Assembly: GCA_023254095.1 (NCBI GenBank)
Contig: JALNLM010000003.1
Span: 32,001 to 96,000, forward strand
Source of the DNA: Candidatus Geocrenenecus huangii
GTDB taxonomy: Archaea > Thermoproteota > Nitrososphaeria_A > Caldarchaeales > Wolframiiraptoraceae
DNA length: 64,000 nt
Direction: 5' to 3'
In this document: in pieces, positions 47,870 through 56,460 of the stretch
Layout: each line of letters begins with the position of its first letter
Position numbering within the stretch: the first letter of the stretch is position 1
The notes under the pieces: generated by a model
What the model was told of the DNA's origin: nothing
Databases searched by the model: none
Seen by the model: only the letters and a program-made list of their open reading frames with translations
Position numbers and translations under genes: made by a program

Positions 47870-49114
47870 CTATGATATCGACCCTAATGTTAATGGAATA
47901 TCTATTTCACGATTATCTCTCAATATTTTTAGTGTTATCGTATCTCCAGGTCTTTTATATTCTTCAATGTATGATAGTATGTCTGCTAGACCGAAGACGA
48001 CTATACCGTCAACGCCTATTATTACGTCTCCTCCAATATTTATTCTTGTTCCATCTGAGAGCGTGATCACCCTGCTGCCAGCTCTCAACCCAGCTTTCTC
48101 TGCAGGGCTATCCTTTGCAACAGCTGTTATTAGTAGTCCATATGCTTTCTCCAAATTCATCAATTGAGCTACCTCCATGTTAACATCTATTCCACCTATA
48201 CCCATCCATGGATGCTCATAGTTGCCTTTCTCGATTAATGATTTAACAACTCTTACAACTATGTTGGAGGGTATCGCGAAACCTATTCCCGCAAATTCTC
48301 CAGTAGTTGATGCGATAGCGGTTGTAACGCCTACGACTTTTCCAGAATAGTCTAGTAATGGTCCACCACTGTTCCCTGGGTTTACAGCTGCGTCGAACTG
48401 TATTACTCCAGGTATACCTCTACCGCCAGGGCTTTCGAGAAGTCTGTTCAACTGGCTTATCACTCCCGCAGTTAAAGTAGCTGTTAATCCGAATGGGTTC
48501 CCTATAGCGATCACAGGCTGCCCAACTCTAAGTTTTGACGAGTCACTAAAAGCTAAGGGGTTCAGAGTTTTCTCACCAGGCTCTATTTTTAATACTGCTA
48601 AATCAGCGTAAGGGTCTACTCCAATTATCTTAGCCACGTATACACTTCTATCTGGGAAGAATACCTGTACACTTTCAGCATTCTCAACAACATGGTAGTT
48701 CGTGATAATGTATCCATCAGGAGAGTATACGAATCCAGAACCCTCAGACGAGGCGTAAGTTTTACCGAAGATCGTTTCTACAACGATTCTAGATTTTATC
48801 AGGACAATCGAGTCTTTAACTTTCTCATATACCATCTCCGGAGCGGTGAGATTATGCTGAGCCAATGTTAAAACAGCCGTTGAGGAAATATTCGACCTCA
48901 GAATGGATAGATTTTCTTCTATATCTGTTAAGCGATATTCATAGTTTGAGAGCCTGGACCTCAGATCGTCGATCTTCTCGGAAAGTTGTAGAAGCTTTAT
49001 GTTAAAATCATTAATAGATAGTTGGTATAGGATTAGTGATCCTGCAGACAATATTAGTGCAGCCACGATAACTATGGTTAATGCGATGTATGCTCTGTTC
49101 ATCTTACTTACCAC
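47870..49114 (-). CDS. htrA: Membrane-anchored HtrA/DegP serine protease with coiled-coil stalk and PDZ domain
   Basis: TM helix, coiled coil, GSGFV, ITNYHVV, DLAVLK, DAAVNPGNSGGPL, PDZ (SPAEKAGL...GGDVI). Confidence 0.95.
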   Translation of the reverse strand: MVSKMNRAYIALTIVIVAALILSAGSLILYQLSINDFNIKLLQLSEKIDDLRSRLSNYEYRLTDIEENLSILRSNISSTAVLTLAQHNLTAPEMVYEKVKDSIVLIKSRIVVETIFGKTYASSEGSGFVYSPDGYIITNYHVVENAESVQVFFPDRSVYVAKIIGVDPYADLAVLKIEPGEKTLNPLAFSDSSKLRVGQPVIAIGNPFGLTATLTAGVISQLNRLLESPGGRGIPGVIQFDAAVNPGNSGGPLLDYSGKVVGVTTAIASTTGEFAGIGFAIPSNIVVRVVKSLIEKGNYEHPWMGIGGIDVNMEVAQLMNLEKAYGLLITAVAKDSPAEKAGLRAGSRVITLSDGTRINIGGDVIIGVDGIVVFGLADILSYIEEYKRPGDTITLKILRDNREIDIPLTLGSIS

Positions 49115-49136
49115 CTCTTATCCAGACATCTATTTT

Positions 49137-49156
49137 CACAAATGATAGCATTTGTG
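49137..49156. promoter_or_regulatory. Palindrome between the htrA TATA box and start codon
   Basis: CACAAATG-ATAG-CATTTGTG, perfect 8-4-8. Confidence 0.55.
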
Positions 49157-49161
49157 GACTT

Positions 49162-49194
49162 TATAAGGAATTTCCTGAAACAAGCTGGAACAAG
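49162..49194 (-). promoter_or_regulatory. htrA promoter: TATA element with upstream direct repeat
   Basis: Plus strand reads TATAAGGAA-tttc-CTGAAACAAG-CTGGAACAAG; same layout as 56428-56460. Confidence 0.6.
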
Positions 49195-49266
49195 ATAACT
49201 AGAAGACTGCGTTAACAAAGAAAAATATCCTAGGCTTTCCCTATATTTTTCGAAAAGATTTTTCAG

Positions 49267-50679
49267 CTAATCTAGATGGAATCTACCAATCATATCGATT
49301 CTCTCAAATCCGTGATATCCGAATCTTTCTCTAAGAGCCTGGATAAGGTTTGCAGGTAGTCTCTCACGTTTTAGGGCTATCAGGTAATTTAGAGACGAGT
49401 CGAAGATAGGTGTAGGAATATTCGTAAATTTTAACTTAGAAAGAAGTAGTCTAAGAGAACCTTCTAGACCAGTAACCTCTTTGAATAGCTCGTCATCCAT
49501 TAGAATATTCTCTATTCCCGGATTTCTCTCAACTACTTCTATAAGCTTGTTTAGTAGTGCAGAACGTATTATGCATCCACCCCTCCATATCTTCAACAAT
49601 TTCACTATGTCGATATTATATGAATACTCGTCTGAAGCCTTCTTGATAAGATGTAGACCCTGAGTATACGATAGAATCATAGCCAGATGAAACGAGTTCT
49701 TTAAATGTTCGAGGAAGAGCTCCGTTGACCCTAAATTACTCTTATTCTTATTTGAGGATTCACAGAGTTTCCTCGACAACGATGTACGTAAGTCCTTATA
49801 CGTAGATATTACTCTAGAAGTAACGGCTGCATCAATACATGGTGTTGGAACAACTATATCTAAGGCTGTCTGGGTAGTCCATTTACCTGTTCCTTTCTGT
49901 TCAGCTTTATCATATATTAGTTCTACAATTGGTAAATTTGTTACTTCATCTACCCTCTGTAGCACATCTACAGTTATCTCAAGAAGATATGAATTCAAAT
50001 CATGCTTAAGCCATTCTCTAAACATGTCCCTGATATGTGGGATCTCCAACATCATAACATTCCTCATAATATCATATGTTTCTGCAATAGATTCCATGAT
50101 AGCGTATTCAATACCGTTATGAACCATTTTTACGAAGTGCCCTGCTCCTCTAGATCCAACGTATCCTGCGCAGGGCTCACTATCTACTTTTGCGGAGATA
50201 CTCCTCCAAAATTCTCTCATAACAGAGTATCCATACTCTTCTCCGCCCACCATGATTGATGGACCCTTCAATGCTCCTTCTTTTCCGCCGCTTATCCCAA
50301 CCCCCATCAATACAATATTCTTCTTCTTTAACTCATCCTGTCTCCTCTCCGTATCTTTATAGAAAGAATTACCACAATCACAAACAATATCTCCCTCATC
50401 CAAGTATTTTGAGAGGGAGACGAGTATCTGGTCGACTGGCTGGCCTGCTGGAACTAGTAAGATTATCTTTCTAGGTTTCTCAAGAGAGTTGACGAATTCT
50501 TCAATAGTATATGTAGGCTTAATCTCAAACATGTTTGATGCTTTTTCATAAAGTTTCTTTGTCTTCTCCACTACTTTATCATATATAGACACGGTGAATC
50601 CCTTTGAAACAGTATTTAACGTAAGGTTTCCACCCATAACTCCAAGCCCAATTATACCAAGATAGCTTAATGTATGCAC
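49267..50679 (-). CDS. gnd: 6-phosphogluconate dehydrogenase, decarboxylating (long GndA type)
   Basis: GLGVMG, LVPAG, DCGNS, GISGG..GA..GPSIMVGG, GHFVKMVHNGIEY, QKGTGKW, WRGGCIIRS. Confidence 0.94.
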   Translation of the reverse strand: MHTLSYLGIIGLGVMGGNLTLNTVSKGFTVSIYDKVVEKTKKLYEKASNMFEIKPTYTIEEFVNSLEKPRKIILLVPAGQPVDQILVSLSKYLDEGDIVCDCGNSFYKDTERRQDELKKKNIVLMGVGISGGKEGALKGPSIMVGGEEYGYSVMREFWRSISAKVDSEPCAGYVGSRGAGHFVKMVHNGIEYAIMESIAETYDIMRNVMMLEIPHIRDMFREWLKHDLNSYLLEITVDVLQRVDEVTNLPIVELIYDKAEQKGTGKWTTQTALDIVVPTPCIDAAVTSRVISTYKDLRTSLSRKLCESSNKNKSNLGSTELFLEHLKNSFHLAMILSYTQGLHLIKKASDEYSYNIDIVKLLKIWRGGCIIRSALLNKLIEVVERNPGIENILMDDELFKEVTGLEGSLRLLLSKLKFTNIPTPIFDSSLNYLIALKRERLPANLIQALRERFGYHGFERIDMIGRFHLD

Positions 50680-50834
50680 AGACTATAGAGCCTAGCCTTT
50701 AATATTAAATCTTACAGAATATTAGGGGTAACATGAACATATTGAGGTGCCGATCTTCATAACATTACCGCATTATTCTTTGCTTAGAAATGTATAAATA
50801 AGGTTTTCCAGACATCATAGGTAGGAGCATCTAG

Positions 50835-51662
50835 ATGGCTGAAGATTCCGAAGAACTCTATCTTTCGTTCCTGTTCCTAGCCTTCATAATACTCGTCTTT
50901 ACCTCTTCAGCTAATGCTGTTACTATGGGTGAGTTGATCCTGCGTATATATGAAGATGGAGTAGTCGCCATAGAGGATAGAATCTTACCTGAAGTTGATT
51001 ATGGGAATGTTACGGTTAAGCTTCTTACAAACAGAGTAGAGAACATCTTAGTAGTAGGTGGAGAAGGGAGACTAGTCAGCTATCAACTTAACGGAGACCT
51101 AGTAACATTGTATGGGGAAATACCAAACCAAGTCGTAATCCATTACGAGACCTCGGCTTTAACTATAAAGAATGGATCATTATGGACGTTGGAAATATAT
51201 CTACATAGGGATGCAGAAGTAGTGATGCCAAGTAGAAGTGTCATCATATCTCTAAGCGATGTCCCTAAAATGATCGTGGGGGAAGCAAATTCTCTAAAAC
51301 TATTATTAAGCCCAGGATTTTGGAAGATCGAGTACGTGATACAGTTTACGCCTCATAACACTATACAGGAAGCACAAGACAGTTCTTACATAATTATTTT
51401 TTCAAGCATTATTGGAGGACCTATTGCGATAGTTTCAGCTATGCTCTACATTAGGAGGAAAAAGAATTCAAGCATGGTTCTTGATGATGAGAAGAAGGTC
51501 TTCGAATTGATTAAAAAGAGGAGGAGGGTTACGGAAGCGGAGATTAGAGCTTTAACACGTCTGCCTAAGACGACGGTTTGGAGAATTGTTAGAAGACTTG
51601 AAAGAAAGGGATTAGTAAGAGTTATCAAAGTTAATAATAGGAATGAAGTGGAGCTTGCTTAG
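50835..51662 (+). CDS. Membrane-spanning transcription regulator: signal peptide, extracellular beta domain, TM helix, C-terminal winged HTH (COG2512-like)
   Basis: Signal ending in SSANA, beta-rich ectodomain, TM helix followed by RRKK, then EAEIRALTRLPKTTVWRIVRRLERKGLVRV...N.VEL. Confidence 0.82.
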   Translation: MAEDSEELYLSFLFLAFIILVFTSSANAVTMGELILRIYEDGVVAIEDRILPEVDYGNVTVKLLTNRVENILVVGGEGRLVSYQLNGDLVTLYGEIPNQVVIHYETSALTIKNGSLWTLEIYLHRDAEVVMPSRSVIISLSDVPKMIVGEANSLKLLLSPGFWKIEYVIQFTPHNTIQEAQDSSYIIIFSSIIGGPIAIVSAMLYIRRKKNSSMVLDDEKKVFELIKKRRRVTEAEIRALTRLPKTTVWRIVRRLERKGLVRVIKVNNRNEVELA

Positions 51663-51698
51663 CTCGAAGACACAGAATATTCATTTCATTCAGCATTG

Positions 51699-52388
51699 TC
51701 ATGCAGGGATTTTACAAGTTTCAGGGCTACTCATAGTCTTTAAGGACCTTAATGTTTCATTGATTACTCTAAATGCTTCATTCAGCTTTCTACCAGCTTC
51801 AATATAAGAGCTTTCATCAATTAGCTCTCTTGCTTCATCGATCAACTGCCTCAATTTTGTAGTAGAGTTCGATAAGAGTCCTCTAACTTCTTCATCGCTA
51901 GTCTTCTCATATAGATTTGTAAAGATGTTTAACCAGTGCTTGGCTCTCTCCAACTTACCCAAGAGCATATTCCTCAACATCAATTCTTCATGGTACGTCT
52001 CGTTACCGCCTAAAGGTGGAGGGGGCATAGATTTACGGAATAGAAACATAAGTTCTCTAAGCTTCCTCCAAGCCGAGAAACGGTCGCCTCTCTCCATAAA
52101 TCCGTAGGCTTCTTTGAGCAGGTCTTTAGCTTTCTCGATCTCGGCTTTGCTGAGGTATGGGGGACTACCAATTGGAGGCTGTTCTGCTTCTCTAATCTCT
52201 TTCTCCATTAAGTCTAGAAGCATTTTCAGATCATCCATCTCCTTTACTCTGAGATTTATGAAATAATTGTATGCTAGGATTATGGAGAGAGCTGACAATA
52301 CAACTACTATGCAGATGAAAGTGATCCACTTACTTCTCCCGGTGAACAGCTTGTTTACTGCTTTCACTAGTTTACTCTTGTTACTCAT
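51699..52388 (-). CDS. Membrane-anchored all-helical hypothetical protein, last gene of the ABC operon
   Basis: One N-terminal TM helix, two similar helical units (A..L..EA......G/S....A..KL), Pro-rich linkers; overlaps the permease stop. Confidence 0.7.
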   Translation of the reverse strand: MSNKSKLVKAVNKLFTGRSKWITFICIVVVLSALSIILAYNYFINLRVKEMDDLKMLLDLMEKEIREAEQPPIGSPPYLSKAEIEKAKDLLKEAYGFMERGDRFSAWRKLRELMFLFRKSMPPPPLGGNETYHEELMLRNMLLGKLERAKHWLNIFTNLYEKTSDEEVRGLLSNSTTKLRQLIDEARELIDESSYIEAGRKLNEAFRVINETLRSLKTMSSPETCKIPA

Positions 52389-53637
52389 ACCTGAGCGCCT
52401 CCAATGGGGTATACTTGGCAGCTCTCCACGCTGGAATTATCCCTGCTAATAATCCTATTAGTACGGCCATCACTAATGCTGTTATTAATACTTCAGGAGT
52501 TATCTTGGGAGCTATCTGGAGTGTTAACATCGTCTGGCCCCCTCCACCTCCTGCACCAGGCATTCTCAAGTTACCGAATGGTGCAAAGAAGAAGTATCCT
52601 CCCACAGATCCCGCTATTATTCCTATTACTCCTCCCATAAATCCTATTAATATCGCTTCAGTTAGGAATATCCCAAGTATATGTCTTGTCTTGAAACCAA
52701 TTGCTTTAAGTATACCTATCTCCCTAATCCTCTCTGTAACTGATGTAAACATCGTCGTCATTATCGCCAGGAAGGCGACAACGAATGACATGAAGGCCAT
52801 GGAACCTAGAAACATTGAGAATTGACCTATCGTCTGCTGGATCGTCTGCACCATTTGCTGAGGTGAGAACGTTCTAACACCGTCTCCTAGAACATTTGTT
52901 ATCCCTCTCTGAACATCCTCTACATACTCAGCGTCTCTAGCGATCACTAATACCTGATTGTATGTTGACGTGCTTGCCAGCTTACTTCCAGCTTTCAGAG
53001 GAATAAATATAGTTGTATCAGGATTATAAAAAAGACCTTGACCATACTGTTTAAGCACTCCTATCACCTTCACTGTAATCATTCGCGTTTCACCTCTACC
53101 CGTAGTCGCCTCTATAGTTATTAAGTCGCTGATATTCACTTCCGGTAGGTCGCTTTGATCAGGTTTTGCAACCTTTGAACCTATCACTGCGATGTATCTT
53201 CCAGAACCCGAAATCTCTCCTTCTTGGATTTCTAATCCTTGAAAAATCTTTTCAAGAAGATCTAAGTCAACTGCAACGATTCTGTATGTTTCCTCACTTC
53301 CTGGAGTTAATTCTATTGTTTTACCTTTGATCTTCACTGTGGCTGCAGGTATGGTATATACTGGGGCTACTGCGTCTACATCTTCGATTTTAGATATTTT
53401 CTGTATTGTCTTGTCTGTAAACTCAACCCCGCTTCTCGGCATGGACGTCAACATGATCACGTTTGCACCTAAAGATTGTAGTCTACTTGTTAAAGCTTCT
53501 CCAAATCCTTGAGTTGAGGCAATTGCTGCAACGTAGAGGGCTGGGCCAATAACCATTCCAAGTATAGTTAAACTCGTTCTGAGTTTTCTAGATTTGAGAG
53601 CTGCAAAAGCCAGGTATAACATGTCAGGGAGCTTCAC
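52381..53637 (-). CDS. MacB/FtsX-family ABC permease
   Basis: KLRTSLTILG, large extracytoplasmic domain, SVTERIREIGILKAIG, PAWRAAK..PLEALRYE. Confidence 0.94.
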   Translation of the reverse strand: MKLPDMLYLAFAALKSRKLRTSLTILGMVIGPALYVAAIASTQGFGEALTSRLQSLGANVIMLTSMPRSGVEFTDKTIQKISKIEDVDAVAPVYTIPAATVKIKGKTIELTPGSEETYRIVAVDLDLLEKIFQGLEIQEGEISGSGRYIAVIGSKVAKPDQSDLPEVNISDLITIEATTGRGETRMITVKVIGVLKQYGQGLFYNPDTTIFIPLKAGSKLASTSTYNQVLVIARDAEYVEDVQRGITNVLGDGVRTFSPQQMVQTIQQTIGQFSMFLGSMAFMSFVVAFLAIMTTMFTSVTERIREIGILKAIGFKTRHILGIFLTEAILIGFMGGVIGIIAGSVGGYFFFAPFGNLRMPGAGGGGGQTMLTLQIAPKITPEVLITALVMAVLIGLLAGIIPAWRAAKYTPLEALRYE

Positions 53638-55657
53638 GTTTTTTACGCCTCCTCAGCAAGATCATTACCGATACCCCGACGACAGCCGCTACCACTATTG
53701 AAATCAGGATAGGGTTCTGTAAAATCATATACGGTTGCCACCCACCTTGGATTGTTGTCTGGCGTTGTACTGTTCCTGTGGCAAATGAGCGTGTAGCAGT
53801 AGGAAGAATACTTCTCGAAGTTACTTCTATCTCTATTGTCTTTGAATATTCTGTAACCTCGCCGAAGACGTCGCTACATGAAATTGTGAGGTCTGCAGTG
53901 TATTTCCCAGGTCTTGCATTCTCCGCTACATCTACCGATACTGAGAATGACGCTTTTGAGAGACTAGATATATCGCCTATGTAGTATACAGAGTCTATCG
54001 TCTCGATTAAGGGTGGAGATGCTCTTACCCTTACTTCACATAGTTTGCCGGTTGATAATCCTCTGTTGTATATATCTCCAGAGATATCCAACGATTCGCC
54101 AGCGGCCACTGAGGTAGAAGAGAGAACAACTCCGCTGAACCCGAATCTTAAGTCAGGCTTTATTATTATCGGAACCATTACTTCATCTGTCTTCAGTTCT
54201 CCAGAGGGGTTGCGATAAGTTATTGAAAGTTTGCCGTATGAGGTGCCTGTTGAGGCTGATGGAGAAACTCTTACTGGAATCTCTAATTCTATAAAGCTTT
54301 TTGCAGGTATCTGCTCAAAATAGAATATGCCGTTGCTTGCTAATGCTAATGGAAGACTCTCGAAACTTGTCTTTATGATGATGTCCCTAATCGGCGAATC
54401 ATATGGATTCTCTATAACGATAGATAGATCATGGCTTTTGCCTATGATTACTTCAGGGTTTTTTATGTAGCCGGAGAGACTAACAGTGGGCGGAGACCTT
54501 ACTTCGACTTTTATCGTCTTGGATAGTGTCTGGGTAACACCATCTGAGGAAATGTATTCAGCTTGTATTGTAATAGGATAAAAGCCTTCAGATAATGCTC
54601 CTGGAGCACGCACGAGAAAACTAAAACTCAATTCCTTACCGGGATCAACTTTAGTAATTTTAATTCCGTTATCTAATATTATTAGGTCATTAGAGGAGAG
54701 GGAGACTTTAACCGAGTATATTGGGCTACTTCCAGTATTCATTATCTTGATACCTATATTTGAAGTAGAACCAGTAGTGAAGATTGGAGATTGCGTGGAG
54801 ATATCTAAATCACTGCTACCTGCTATCGTTACCGGGATGAAGATTTCTTGGTTTTGTATACTTAACCATCTATCGTAATAGTTTAAGACAAGCTTTAAGT
54901 TGTAAGTCCCGAGAGGGATGTCCGACTTTATGTTTAATGGGAATTTCAATGTAAAATACTGGCTCTCACTTGACTGCCCTGCATAACTAGCCTTGACTAA
55001 GTCTCCTCCTGTGAGATTAGTAAAGTGATCATTAAGATGTAGGGTTGCAGCAATGTTAGAGACCTCGTAGTATTTTGGGACAGTAAATGTTACCGAAAGA
55101 ATCTTATTGAAGTCACCAGGCCCCGCAGAAGTTTGAAGACCTTCACCATTAAGCCAGCTTATATCAATTATTCTAAATTCTGGCAGTGGCCACACATAGA
55201 TATCTATCTTTTTCAATGCCATTATCAGAGGATATTCTGGGTCACTACAATCGTAATAGAAGAAGTAAAGGTAGGCTTCGTATTTTCCGGGTTTAGCACT
55301 ACTATCAATTATCACGTCAAAGATAAGTTGTGCTTTATCTCCGAATCCTATCTGCTGATCAGTATATGTTGTTATGTTTCCAGGCTTAACGCCCTTGAAT
55401 GGGAATGGCCTAAAAGGATCTATTGGCCATAGGATGACTTTCAGACCACAAATAGTCTCGTCTTCAATTAAGCTTCTGAAATCAATTACTAGGTTTGCTC
55501 TATCACCAGGCATAGCCGCCATTTCTTTTCCTGACTCACCCCAATAAGCATCTATTATCTCTATCGTCCCTGTCTCGGCGTAAGCATATGGGAGCACAGT
55601 GTTCAGCAGAATAATACACGCTAATAGGAGATAGACTGCAACAGTTTTAGACTTCAT
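53624..55657 (-). CDS. COG1361-like (S-layer-domain, Ig-repeat) surface protein with C-terminal TM anchor
   Basis: Signal peptide, repeated PG.Y...L...Y.D beta-sandwich units, Thr-rich spacer, TM helix and RRRKKR. Confidence 0.82.
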   Translation of the reverse strand: MKSKTVAVYLLLACIILLNTVLPYAYAETGTIEIIDAYWGESGKEMAAMPGDRANLVIDFRSLIEDETICGLKVILWPIDPFRPFPFKGVKPGNITTYTDQQIGFGDKAQLIFDVIIDSSAKPGKYEAYLYFFYYDCSDPEYPLIMALKKIDIYVWPLPEFRIIDISWLNGEGLQTSAGPGDFNKILSVTFTVPKYYEVSNIAATLHLNDHFTNLTGGDLVKASYAGQSSESQYFTLKFPLNIKSDIPLGTYNLKLVLNYYDRWLSIQNQEIFIPVTIAGSSDLDISTQSPIFTTGSTSNIGIKIMNTGSSPIYSVKVSLSSNDLIILDNGIKITKVDPGKELSFSFLVRAPGALSEGFYPITIQAEYISSDGVTQTLSKTIKVEVRSPPTVSLSGYIKNPEVIIGKSHDLSIVIENPYDSPIRDIIIKTSFESLPLALASNGIFYFEQIPAKSFIELEIPVRVSPSASTGTSYGKLSITYRNPSGELKTDEVMVPIIIKPDLRFGFSGVVLSSTSVAAGESLDISGDIYNRGLSTGKLCEVRVRASPPLIETIDSVYYIGDISSLSKASFSVSVDVAENARPGKYTADLTISCSDVFGEVTEYSKTIEIEVTSRSILPTATRSFATGTVQRQTTIQGGWQPYMILQNPILISIVVAAVVGVSVMILLRRRKKREAP

Positions 55658-56403
55658 GATTTCACCTCTTCCTTCTCGATTAAACCATCCCTAATGTAGA
55701 GTATTCTTTTTGCATATGATGCGATTTCAAGGTTATGTGTAACCATAACGATTGTTCTACCTTTCTCGTTAAGCCTCCTAAATAGTTCAGCGATCATTAC
55801 ACTGTTCTTTGAGTCTAGGTTTCCAGTAGGCTCATCTGCGAGAAGTATCTCGGGATTATTTATGAGAGCCCTAGCTATTGCGACCCTCTGCTGTTCTCCA
55901 CCGCTTAATCTTGTAGGCCTAGTATAAGCTTTATCTTTTAACCCAACTTCTTCAAGCAGCTTCAAGATTCTTTCTCTCCGTTCCTGAGAAGATACATCTT
56001 TTACGATTAGAGGTAGCTCAACATTCTTAAGGACTGGCAGGTATGGTACCAGGTTGTAGAATTGAAAAACGAAACCTATTTTTTCATTTCTAAGTTCAGC
56101 TAACTTATCATCCGAGAGCTTGTTGATGTCTACTCCTCCGATTAAGATTCTTCCGCTCGTCGGCCTATCTAATCCACCTATAAGATGCAGGAGAGTTGAT
56201 TTACCGCTTCCTGAAGGGCCGACTATGGCTATGAACTCTCCTCTTAAGATTTTAAGTGAGACACCTCTTAAAGCTTCTGTGGGAATACCATCTGATAAGT
56301 AGACTTTCTTAACATCAATTAATTCGATGACAACACTATCCATACCGATAGAGCCTTGCCCATATTCTTTAACAGAGCCAATTGCGGTCATCCCTGAACT
56401 CAT
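55654..56403 (-). CDS. ABC ATP-binding protein (LolD/SalX type)
   Basis: GPSGSGKST, IGFVFQFYNL, LSGGEQQRVAIARAL, ADEPTGNLD, VTH. Confidence 0.95.
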   Translation of the reverse strand: MSSGMTAIGSVKEYGQGSIGMDSVVIELIDVKKVYLSDGIPTEALRGVSLKILRGEFIAIVGPSGSGKSTLLHLIGGLDRPTSGRILIGGVDINKLSDDKLAELRNEKIGFVFQFYNLVPYLPVLKNVELPLIVKDVSSQERRERILKLLEEVGLKDKAYTRPTRLSGGEQQRVAIARALINNPEILLADEPTGNLDSKNSVMIAELFRRLNEKGRTIVMVTHNLEIASYAKRILYIRDGLIEKEEVKS

Positions 56404-56427
56404 GCATCATATATTGAGGGTGGATGC

Positions 56428-56460
56428 TATAAGGAACTTGATGAAACGTCGATGAAACGT
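56428..56460 (-). promoter_or_regulatory. ABC operon promoter: TATA element with upstream perfect direct repeat
   Basis: TATAAGGAA (56428-56436), then GATGAAACGT at 56440-56449 and 56451-56460. TATA lies about 25 nt from the ATG at 56403. Confidence 0.62.

Follow-up and report, generated by a model that had tools for sequence, protein, structure and literature searches.

The locus and its two boxed promoters

The window, a 64,000-nucleotide stretch of contig JALNLM010000003.1 from the archaeon Candidatus Geocrenenecus huangii, carries at positions 47870-56460 a gene for an HtrA-type protease and an operon for an ATP-binding cassette (ABC) transporter, the promoters of which have a short repeated element in common, hereafter the box. 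Between these loci lies the gene for REG, a protein predicted to span the membrane and to end in a winged helix-turn-helix (wHTH) domain. Comparisons with related genomes support the view that this cis-element, common to both promoters, belongs with REG, and its putative conserved core target is the gene for an exported helical protein, rather than htrA or the ABC and COG1361 genes. The features of the locus are as follows.

47870..49102, minus strand: htrA, a membrane-anchored HtrA/DegP-type serine protease with one PDZ domain (Pfam Trypsin_2 3.4e-37, PDZ_2 2.2e-11)
49162..49191, minus strand: htrA box, on the coding strand GTTCCA-N4-GTTTCA-N8-CTTATAAAG, two half-sites followed by a TATA-like element
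49267..50679, minus strand: 6-phosphogluconate dehydrogenase (6PGD), a bystander between the regulator gene and htrA (Pfam 6PGD 3.7e-98)
50835..51662, plus strand: REG, a predicted transmembrane transcription regulator of 275 amino acids (aa), from Pfam HTH_24/TrmB/MarR_2 matches at residues 218-267 and an AlphaFold2 (AF2) model
51699..52388, minus strand: exported, membrane-anchored helical protein (the partner), last gene of the ABC operon, convergent with REG
52381..53637, minus strand: MacB/FtsX-type ABC permease (Pfam FtsX 1.5e-21, MacB_PCD 1.3e-18)
53624..55657, minus strand: COG1361/CARDB-type surface protein (677 aa), with a signal sequence at the N-terminus and an anchor at the C-terminus
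55654..56403, minus strand: ABC ATPase (MacB/LolD/FtsE-like), first gene of the operon (Pfam ABC_tran 2.8e-37)
56428..56458, minus strand: ABC-operon box, on the coding strand CGTTTCA-N4-CGTTTCA-N8-CTTATAG, a direct repeat with an 11-bp period

Read on the coding strand, both promoter elements comprise a pair of GTTYCA half-sites at an interval of 10-11 bp and, after them, TTCCTTATA. An earlier note, made from the sequence of this stretch, had reported the motif strings at 49162-49191 and 56428-56458, and had read them as a direct repeat of that period upstream of a TATA element; both strings were found in place, with the layout described. The pattern TATAAGGAA-N4-6-TGRAAC-N3-6-TGRAAC matched twice in the window, compared with a mean of 0.00 and a maximum of 0 in 100 dinucleotide-preserving shuffles, and the full motif has exactly two copies in the whole assembly (1,609,249 bases in 32 contigs), such that it is absent from the unrelated promoters of this genome. 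The direct repeat alone has four copies in the assembly, the two beyond the box promoters being intragenic, within open reading frames (ORFs). By itself, TTCCTTATA occurs 30 times, against approximately 27 by a rough chance estimate from base composition, and hence it is not a general promoter element. A position matrix derived from 18 sites in other genomes, with both window sites excluded, ranked the ABC-operon box first (25.8 bits) and the htrA box second (21.7 bits) among 3,217,090 positions; the sites ranked third to fifth in this genome (20.3, 18.4 and 15.8 bits) all fall inside ORFs. The box regulon scan found no third site in the window genome. Further regulon members were sought with GTTYCA-N8-CTTAT, which gave four matches in the genome and three in the reversed control, the two extra matches having the appearance of chance.

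The remaining properties of the locus concern the individual genes. The htrA product has the trypsin-like serine protease domain, with a GNSGG-type active-site motif, and the C-terminal PDZ domain of the HtrA/DegP family, and matches the NCBIfam model degP_htrA_DO (5.9e-91) under its curated cutoff. Its start is more likely to be the ATG at 49102, which is preceded by GAGGTGG, than the GTG at 49114, and its predicted transcript would have a leader of approximately 35 nt. The ABC-operon transcript is probably leaderless, the ATG being 30 nt past the C of CTTAT. The FtsX permease, MacB periplasmic core domain and cognate ATPase of a MacB-type (type VII) ABC transporter are all found in the products of 52381-53637 and 55654-56403, and the permease matches NCBIfam MacB/LolCE-like models, all under their curated cutoffs. 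For the 677-aa COG1361 protein, the NPCBM_assoc, CARDB and PTHB1_GAE Pfam matches are sub-threshold, or marginal over the whole protein, with no single stretch passing alone. The box was looked for in the 6PGD promoter region (50680-50834) and in REG's own promoter, and is present in neither. Three metatranscriptomes from the same study, mapped to the 8.9-kb stretch, yielded only six reads, from one run, in the htrA and ABC ATPase genes (window positions 48097-48690 and 55819-56412); their first mates are on the plus strand, which is consistent with minus-strand transcripts, provided that the library is stranded in the usual way.

Conservation of the box and its gene associates

The box is present at all 27 fully visible promoters of the partner gene or its operon. 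These comprise seven of the ABC-operon type, 13 in which a 421-aa target with helical and Ig-like parts is convergent with REG, four targets unlinked from REG, one second module (in genome G023) and two from another family of the order; outside this set are one partly visible promoter from that other family, four loci that end before the promoter, and locus L084, which has no target. The proximal GTTTCA lies exactly 8 bp before CTTAT in every visible promoter except that of L081, where the spacing is 10 bp. The upstream half-sites vary in number and orientation, forming direct repeats in genera g1 (that of the window), g2 and g7, and an inverted repeat with an extra site elsewhere. The motif is kept at orthologous and paralogous promoters in at least seven families of the phylum, and hence the conservation upstream of orthologues on which the earlier note's proposal depended is borne out.

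This conservation is restricted to the element itself. The htrA promoter of G006, from the same genus and with a REG 68% identical to that of the window, and the ABC-operon promoter of Wolframiiraptor allenii (G008; REG 48% identical), have the same box within diverged flanks. The ABC-operon architecture of the box is kept upstream of the orthologous operon in G006, G007, L080, L082 and L083, and L081 has it with a changed spacing. In Terraquivivens, as in many further metagenome-assembled genomes (MAGs), a REG 25-35% identical to that of the window is convergent with a single gene of approximately 421 aa in place of the ABC operon, the promoter of which has the form TGAAACG-N3-CGTTTCA, often with a third half-site before it, and again with the proximal GTTTCA 8 bp ahead of CTTAT. 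In genus g7, from a different family of the order, the homologous target is directly upstream of a REG-like gene, and its promoter contains GTTTCA in three or four direct copies, the proximal one again at 8 bp. In G041-G044 the target gene is unlinked from REG, and a palindromic box is still found at its promoter; the second module of G023 likewise has the box.

Several variants of these loci were observed. In L109-L111, from genus g7, two or three direct repeats of the TGAACAAT/TAAACAAT type lie between the target gene and the REG-like gene, upstream of the latter, and may be a separate operator for the REG-like gene's own promoter. At G014:C3:6132-8363 (L037, L153, L171) there is one in-frame TGA in REG and two in the 421-aa target, with the box intact, and this module may be decaying. 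In L095, L097, L098 and L103, REG is convergent with carbamoyl-phosphate synthase, and upstream of REG are a gene with what we take to be a class-III (type IV pilin-like) signal peptide (…RRAISPVIATIIIVAVAI…) and one for a protein of approximately 350 aa.

The box-bearing partner gene may stand by itself, encode a fusion with an Ig-like domain, or form the final gene of an ABC operon. Profile comparison shows the window's partner to be a homologue of the helical N-terminal half of the 421-aa target seen in other lineages (hhalign probability 95.2%, E 2.5e-8), and the constant unit would therefore be REG together with an exported helical protein that has a box promoter. The ABC ATPase, COG1361 protein and MacB-type permease join the partner only in the window's genus and some Wolframiiraptor genomes, and most REG loci have no ABC transporter. 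Within g1 this cassette is accessory: it is intact in the window genome (G000) and in G006, but G001, G002, G003 and G005 yielded no cassette, only a COG1361 paralogue (35-40% identity); the orthologous COG1361 protein is 72% identical in G006, and 56-59% identical in the Wolframiiraptor loci. Full-length COG1361 paralogues, 35-40% identical to the window's protein, occur in all five of the other searched genomes of the genus (G001:C30, G002:C26, G003:C9, G004:C26 and G005:C51; L120-L124), and point to a possible second system.

Orthologues of htrA are present in all 41 relatives searched, and the box is at five of the 23 orthologous promoters that were read, all from one subclade of one genus, the other 18 having unrelated upstream regions. 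Hence htrA would be a recent recruit, not the centre of the regulon. Its box is complete in G000, G006 and G004, and has a decayed distal half-site in G007 and G002; all five boxed htrA genes adjoin the cassette or its remnant, and the box-free htrA promoter of G003 has an ordinary A-rich TFB recognition element (BRE) and TATA element. The regulon proposed in the earlier note, comprising htrA and the ABC operon, therefore stands insofar as both share a real cis-element tied to REG, but neither is its core, given the low frequency of the box at htrA and its invariable presence at the helical protein gene.

Two loci look like natural deletion variants of this region. L046 (G007:C62:34000-53999) retains the box and the ABC ATPase, together with a COG1361 gene that breaks off at approximately residue 496 and is joined almost directly to htrA, with no REG, the deletion spanning from mid-COG1361 through 6PGD. 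L047 (G004:C10:8000-26212) has DAPDH, then a C-terminal 6PGD fragment (52% identity), then the boxed htrA, with the cassette and REG gone. In a Wolframiiraptor-related MAG, an htrA-like gene (L080:15586-16800) is divergent from the ABC-operon box promoter and has approximately seven in-frame stops; it is judged to be a pseudogene or an assembly error, and so does not constitute a second independent functional link to htrA.

The distribution of the box follows that of the REG family. Among the 41 relatives, it occurs in all eight genomes with a strong full-length REG homologue, also in two without REG (G004 and G007), and in none of the other 31. The strict direct-repeat pattern gave seven matches in five of these genomes, compared with none for its reversed control, and the palindromic pattern was found in all five genomes of genus g4 and in 0 of the other 36; the 421-aa target is found only in the REG-bearing genera (g4 5/5, g7 3/3, others 0/33). 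In a phylum-wide sample of 401 genomes, 28 matches to the palindromic box were found in 27 genomes, versus five control matches, and REG-family proteins were detected in 116 genomes at E<=1e-25, of which 38 had close homologues (E<=1e-59). A close homologue is present in 25 of the 27 palindromic-box genomes, and the matches in the other two are non-canonical and resemble chance. In at least 16 genomes of this sample the box lies within approximately 2 kb of REG. REG and the target are its only constant gene associates, the other neighbours differing between genomes (PEPCK, GNAT, ABC-2, carbamoyl-phosphate synthase). The anticipated co-occurrence of motif and regulator family was thus found at both scales.

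Paralogous modules provide a further association between protein and site. The recognition helix of REG and the half-site are both nearly invariant across 13 aligned homologues. At seven loci of genus g2, Wolframiiraptor (L112-L118; e.g. L118:4749-7012), the gene for a REG-like protein of 299-324 aa precedes, in the same orientation, that for an exported helical protein of 380-484 aa. The REG-like proteins contain ...TTLWRHVKKLEKLGY..., with WRHVKK replacing WRIVRR in the recognition helix, and the intergenic region has a variant box, with GAAACC/GGAACC/GATTCC half-sites in the same placement, next to TYCCCTAA (TTCCCTAAWAT). Both helix and half-site are altered in this module, which is the joint change expected if the wHTH reads the box. 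W. allenii (G008) has three modules in all.

REG and its predicted helical partner

REG comprises a signal peptide or N-terminal anchor, a beta-sandwich ectodomain (residues ~29-170), a transmembrane (TM) helix (~186-206), a short linker and a C-terminal wHTH (~214-275). Its hydrophobic segments are at residues 9-24, followed by SSANA, and at approximately 186-206, the predicted TM segment, followed by RRKK. In the AF2 model, an N-terminal hydrophobic helix precedes an all-beta ectodomain at residues 29-169 with a predicted local distance difference test (pLDDT) value above 90, and a low-confidence hydrophobic stretch (173-215) is predicted as one helix running into the wHTH. The latter matches Pfam HTH_24 (6.7e-6), TrmB (7.5e-6) and MarR_2 at residues 218-267, is also of the DUF7343 type, and superposes on solved DNA-bound wHTH structures with Z 10-11.5 and a root-mean-square deviation (rmsd) of 1.4-1.8 over approximately 60 residues. 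The C-terminal wHTH match and the modelled layout confirm the order of signal peptide, ectodomain, TM helix and wHTH that the earlier note had assigned to the protein at 50835-51662. As a single polypeptide with a predicted DNA-binding domain and at least one predicted TM region, REG falls within the definition of a transmembrane transcription regulator (TTR) used by Demey et al. 2023.

The ectodomain matches no Pfam or NCBIfam model. By predicted fold, it resembles ribophorin I (6s7o_E; Z 11.9, rmsd 4.1, 151 residues aligned) and Ost1 (6c26_1; Z 11.6, rmsd 3.3, 148 aligned), the matching part of which is the membrane-proximal luminal domain that precedes a single TM helix; M1 aminopeptidase N-domains are similarly close (Z 11.0). 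Neither Pfam nor PDB profile searches gave a sequence link between ribophorin I/Ost1 and REG, and the likeness is one of predicted fold alone. BLASTP comparisons of the REG ectodomain with the COG1361 protein and with the 421-aa target, and of these two with each other, gave no match.

An exhaustive profile search recovered 1,427 representative clusters of the REG family at E<=0.001, 623 at E<=1e-10 and 194 at E<=1e-30, and those nearest REG in the Atlas view are archaeal and unnamed. Close homologues come from hot-spring MAGs labelled Candidatus Wolframiiraptor, Candidatus Terraquivivens, 'Bathyarchaeia' archaeon or 'Nitrososphaeria' archaeon, which places the window among Wolframiiraptoraceae-like Caldarchaeales (Aigarchaeota), its genus g1 being distinct from both Wolframiiraptor and Terraquivivens. 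On the evidence of these sequences, this is a large, uncharacterised archaeal family of TTRs. Many complete genomes of 1.4-2.0 Mb from genus g26 of family f5, in the phylum sample, encode 336-373-aa proteins whose similarity to the REG profile is confined to its ectodomain and TM part (~6-221, E 1e-26 to 1e-37), such that the REG-type sensor domain may occur with other C-terminal parts.

The partner is modelled by AF2 as a TM helix and two three-helix bundles. It has no Pfam or NCBIfam match except a sub-threshold DUF4363, and CpxP/Spy is not among the best 50 fold matches. A complex model of the REG ectodomain (residues 27-176, with a 13-row alignment) and the partner (residues 46-229, with a 6-row alignment) scored 0.88 in each of three runs, compared with 0.01 for the best of three controls; for such models, the mark used is attained by 116 of 157 solved complexes, compared with 2 of 215 mismatched pairs, counts that are only a rough guide here, as custom alignments were used. 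The runs share at least 83% of their contacts, the partner has a pLDDT of at least 78, and the modelled interface overlaps invariant columns in the alignments of both proteins. The model thus favours, with some margin for doubt, binding of the partner to the REG ectodomain.

Mechanism, rival explanations and known systems

These observations can be combined in a model in which REG is a one-component transmembrane transcription regulator, the membrane-tethered wHTH of which would read the GTTTCA half-sites. One half-site is placed 8 bp upstream of the CTTAT that starts the TATA element, by the BRE position, and one to three more lie upstream with a period of approximately 10-11 bp, in direct or inverted orientation. 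The wHTH domains, tethered by a linker of approximately 8-10 residues, would dimerise through the TM and ectodomain parts, with the promoter-proximal copy in fixed contact with TFB/TBP. REG would thereby help the pre-initiation complex to form, acting as an activator at the promoter of the exported helical protein gene. In this organism, that gene is the last of the ABC(MacB-type)/COG1361 operon, and the same box would have been recruited to htrA. Sensor and target would form a feedback pair, as in CpxP-CpxA or ToxS-ToxR, in which the free partner outside the cell sets the activity of REG within it. We put the probability of this whole explanation at about 0.5. Its parts differ in strength. 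That REG is the factor bound at the box is the most secure, and is considered probable; activation, given REG at the box, is mildly favoured; and envelope or surface-protein stress as the signal is a tentative suggestion.

A number of points weigh against this explanation. The genomes are related rather than independent, and hence the co-occurrence counts, which are descriptive and carry no formal test, overstate its significance. Thirteen of the 38 genomes with a close REG homologue do not have the palindromic pattern, of which four have the direct-repeat type, one has a variant, and eight are unexplained. G004 and G007 retain their boxes although the REG gene has been lost from the locus and no copy was detected elsewhere, G004 being only 59% complete; hence either the box can outlast REG or it is read by another factor. 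L084/G045 has neither a target homologue nor a convincing box. The columns of the position matrix hold 1.2-2.0 bits in the proximal half-site and YCCTTAT, versus 0-0.5 bits in the flanks, but its sites were gathered by a regular expression that already demanded the core pattern. The complex model is a prediction, not a measurement, and leans on a partner alignment of six rows; assignment of the partner to a family by its fold was also attempted and rejected, as it returned generic helical bundles alone, with a best Z of 10.9, in a range common for such bundles. The earlier note had additionally described the BRE of both promoters as weak, which was not clearly borne out: TTATA-anchored promoters of this genome have a modest A-rich signal at -4 to -7, which both box promoters partly match, and an unusual CC is present in both at -1/-2. 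The weak-BRE argument for activation was set aside after this comparison. Finally, the conserved YCC before TTAT fills the BRE position and resembles a third, weaker half-site (RTYSCT, with the same period), at which bound REG would block TFB, implying repression.

The last point introduces the closest rival, in which REG binds the box as a repressor, with the proximal half-site and YCC occluding TFB until a signal at the ectodomain, such as loss of the partner, releases the promoter. The YCC at the BRE is as conserved as the half-site (1.3-2.0 bits) and continues its 10-11-bp period, which a mere weak BRE would give no reason to expect, and the TATA elements are reasonable (TTATAAA at htrA), with box-free htrA promoters having an ordinary A-rich BRE/TATA, as in G003. 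Furthermore, G004 and G007 keep htrA behind the box in the absence of REG, which would be harmless if loss of the regulator meant derepression. Yet the invariant 8-bp spacing, over order- and phylum-level divergence, suits a stereospecific contact better than occlusion, and the main half-sites are upstream of BRE/TATA, rather than over TATA or the transcription start site. Archaeal activators usually bind immediately upstream of BRE/TATA with constant spacing, and the characterised transmembrane regulators (ToxR, TcpP, CadC, BcrR and ArnR) are mostly activators. Activation is favoured on the basis of this position, the strict spacing and these precedents, and repression is regarded as unlikely, though by some way the nearest competitor.

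It is considerably less probable that another factor reads the box, be it a soluble transcription factor or a specialised TFB/TBP paralogue recognising the YCCTTAT core, with REG co-occurring only through a joint function with the helical protein in the membrane, and with another role for its wHTH. The persistence of the box without REG in G004 and G007, and its separation from REG in G041-G044, would be expected in that case, but both REG-less loci bear deletion scars (the truncated COG1361 gene and the 6PGD fragment), no genes besides REG and the target accompany the box throughout, 25 of 27 box genomes have a close REG homologue, and the paralogous module alters recognition helix and half-site together. 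The remaining possibility is that the likeness of the two promoters is functionless, arising by chance or as a remnant of local duplication. The element is short, and has just two copies in the genome; against this, none is expected from shuffles, the htrA and ABC-operon promoters are alike only at motif positions and differ in their flanks, and the motif is conserved in at least seven families of the phylum. This possibility is refuted as far as comparative data allow.

To our knowledge, very few archaeal pathways link the cell surface to transcription. The circuit proposed here comprises a regulator, an operator of fixed geometry relative to BRE/TATA and a conserved target, the product of which is also the predicted extracellular partner. 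Taken together, the comparisons indicate a real, conserved and testable regulatory module, for which envelope stress is put forward as a hypothesis. The fixed 8-bp spacing makes it a clean system for studying how a membrane-tethered factor contacts TFB/TBP, and the ribophorin-I-like fold of the sensor bears on the origin of the eukaryotic glycosylation machinery. An appreciably more speculative extension, which we think doubtful, is that REG and its partner form an extracytoplasmic surveillance loop widespread among archaea, in which the free partner would report the state of surface-protein assembly to the ribophorin-I-like sensor, and this in turn would control transcription straight from the membrane, with HtrA and the MacB machine as lineage-specific effectors, and with the sensor and TM parts being the prokaryotic relative from which ribophorin I/Ost1 were recruited. 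The circuit is present in the cultivated organism Wolframiiraptor gerlachensis (L083; PMC9246946).

Elements of this arrangement are found in several known systems, none of which combines them in the same manner as REG. In ToxR-ToxS and TcpP-TcpH of Vibrio cholerae, and CadC-LysP of Escherichia coli, a single-pass membrane wHTH regulator binds repeats immediately upstream of the core promoter, and a second membrane or periplasmic protein modulates its outer domain. These regulators have an N-terminal OmpR-type wHTH and act at sigma-70 promoters, and the partner is co-transcribed with the regulator. REG instead has a C-terminal wHTH of the TrmB/MarR/DUF7343 type, with Trans_reg_C not among its matches at E<=0.01, and would act at an archaeal BRE/TATA promoter, with a predicted partner that is its own regulatory target. 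In the CpxA/CpxR-CpxP-DegP system of E. coli, a two-component phosphorelay is modulated by a helical exported protein that is a prime target and binds the outer domain of the sensor, and the regulon includes an HtrA-family protease. The likeness of the REG circuit to Cpx is in logic only: a helical exported target is predicted to be on the sensor, and an HtrA protease is in the regulon in one subclade of the window's genus. By contrast, REG is one polypeptide without kinase or receiver, and its partner has no specific CpxP/Spy fold match. Pfam searches found no HisKA, HATPase_c or Response_reg domain in REG or any of 11 locus proteins, which separates the locus from two-component systems such as CpxAR and CssRS. 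Similarly, the BcrR and BceRS-BceAB types of Firmicutes have a membrane sensor-regulator encoded beside the MacB/FtsX-type ABC operon that it controls. The window has such a regulator beside such an operon, but most REG loci do not, and their constant target is the helical protein.

Membrane-bound regulators are also known within the archaea. ArnR has an N-terminal HTH and C-terminal TM helices, without a large ectodomain, and its targets are archaellum and pilus genes; we know of no extracellular partner for it. REG resembles ArnR and ArnR1 in being an archaeal membrane-bound one-component regulator with boxes upstream of the core promoter, the genes controlled by ArnR and ArnR1 being those of surface structures. 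It would differ in its topology, its type of DNA-binding domain, its large ectodomain and the fold of that sensor, and in having a predicted partner that is its own regulatory target. ArnR and ArnR1 have been characterised in Sulfolobus acidocaldarius (PMC6396743). More broadly, a survey of TTRs catalogued 1,384 archaeal proteins in 367 of 404 species, the single-pass form being commonest; in TTRs a TM segment and a DNA-binding domain share one polypeptide, presumed to regulate DNA while still in the membrane (Demey et al. 2023, PMC10269533). REG has the same combination, although the accessible part of that survey names no family, operator, target or partner for its architecture of a C-terminal DNA-binding domain and an N-terminal ribophorin-I-like beta-sandwich (PMC10269533). 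The claim of the earlier note that no archaeal system of this design had been described hence requires qualification: archaeal TTRs have been surveyed (PMC10269533), with ArnR/ArnR1 as characterised examples (PMC6396743), but no account of this topology, family, box or partner was found in the portions of these sources available. Nor was one found in the literature on DUF7343, on COG1361 with ABC transporters in archaea, on archaeal membrane-bound one-component wHTH proteins, or on archaeal HtrA and envelope stress, although the supplementary tables of PMC10269533, which were outside the scope of this search, may list family members. Beyond the regulators, the structural comparison is with ribophorin I and Ost1: these have a fold similar to that predicted for the REG ectodomain, with a single TM helix after it, but where they continue into a tail that binds oligosaccharyltransferase, REG ends in a wHTH.

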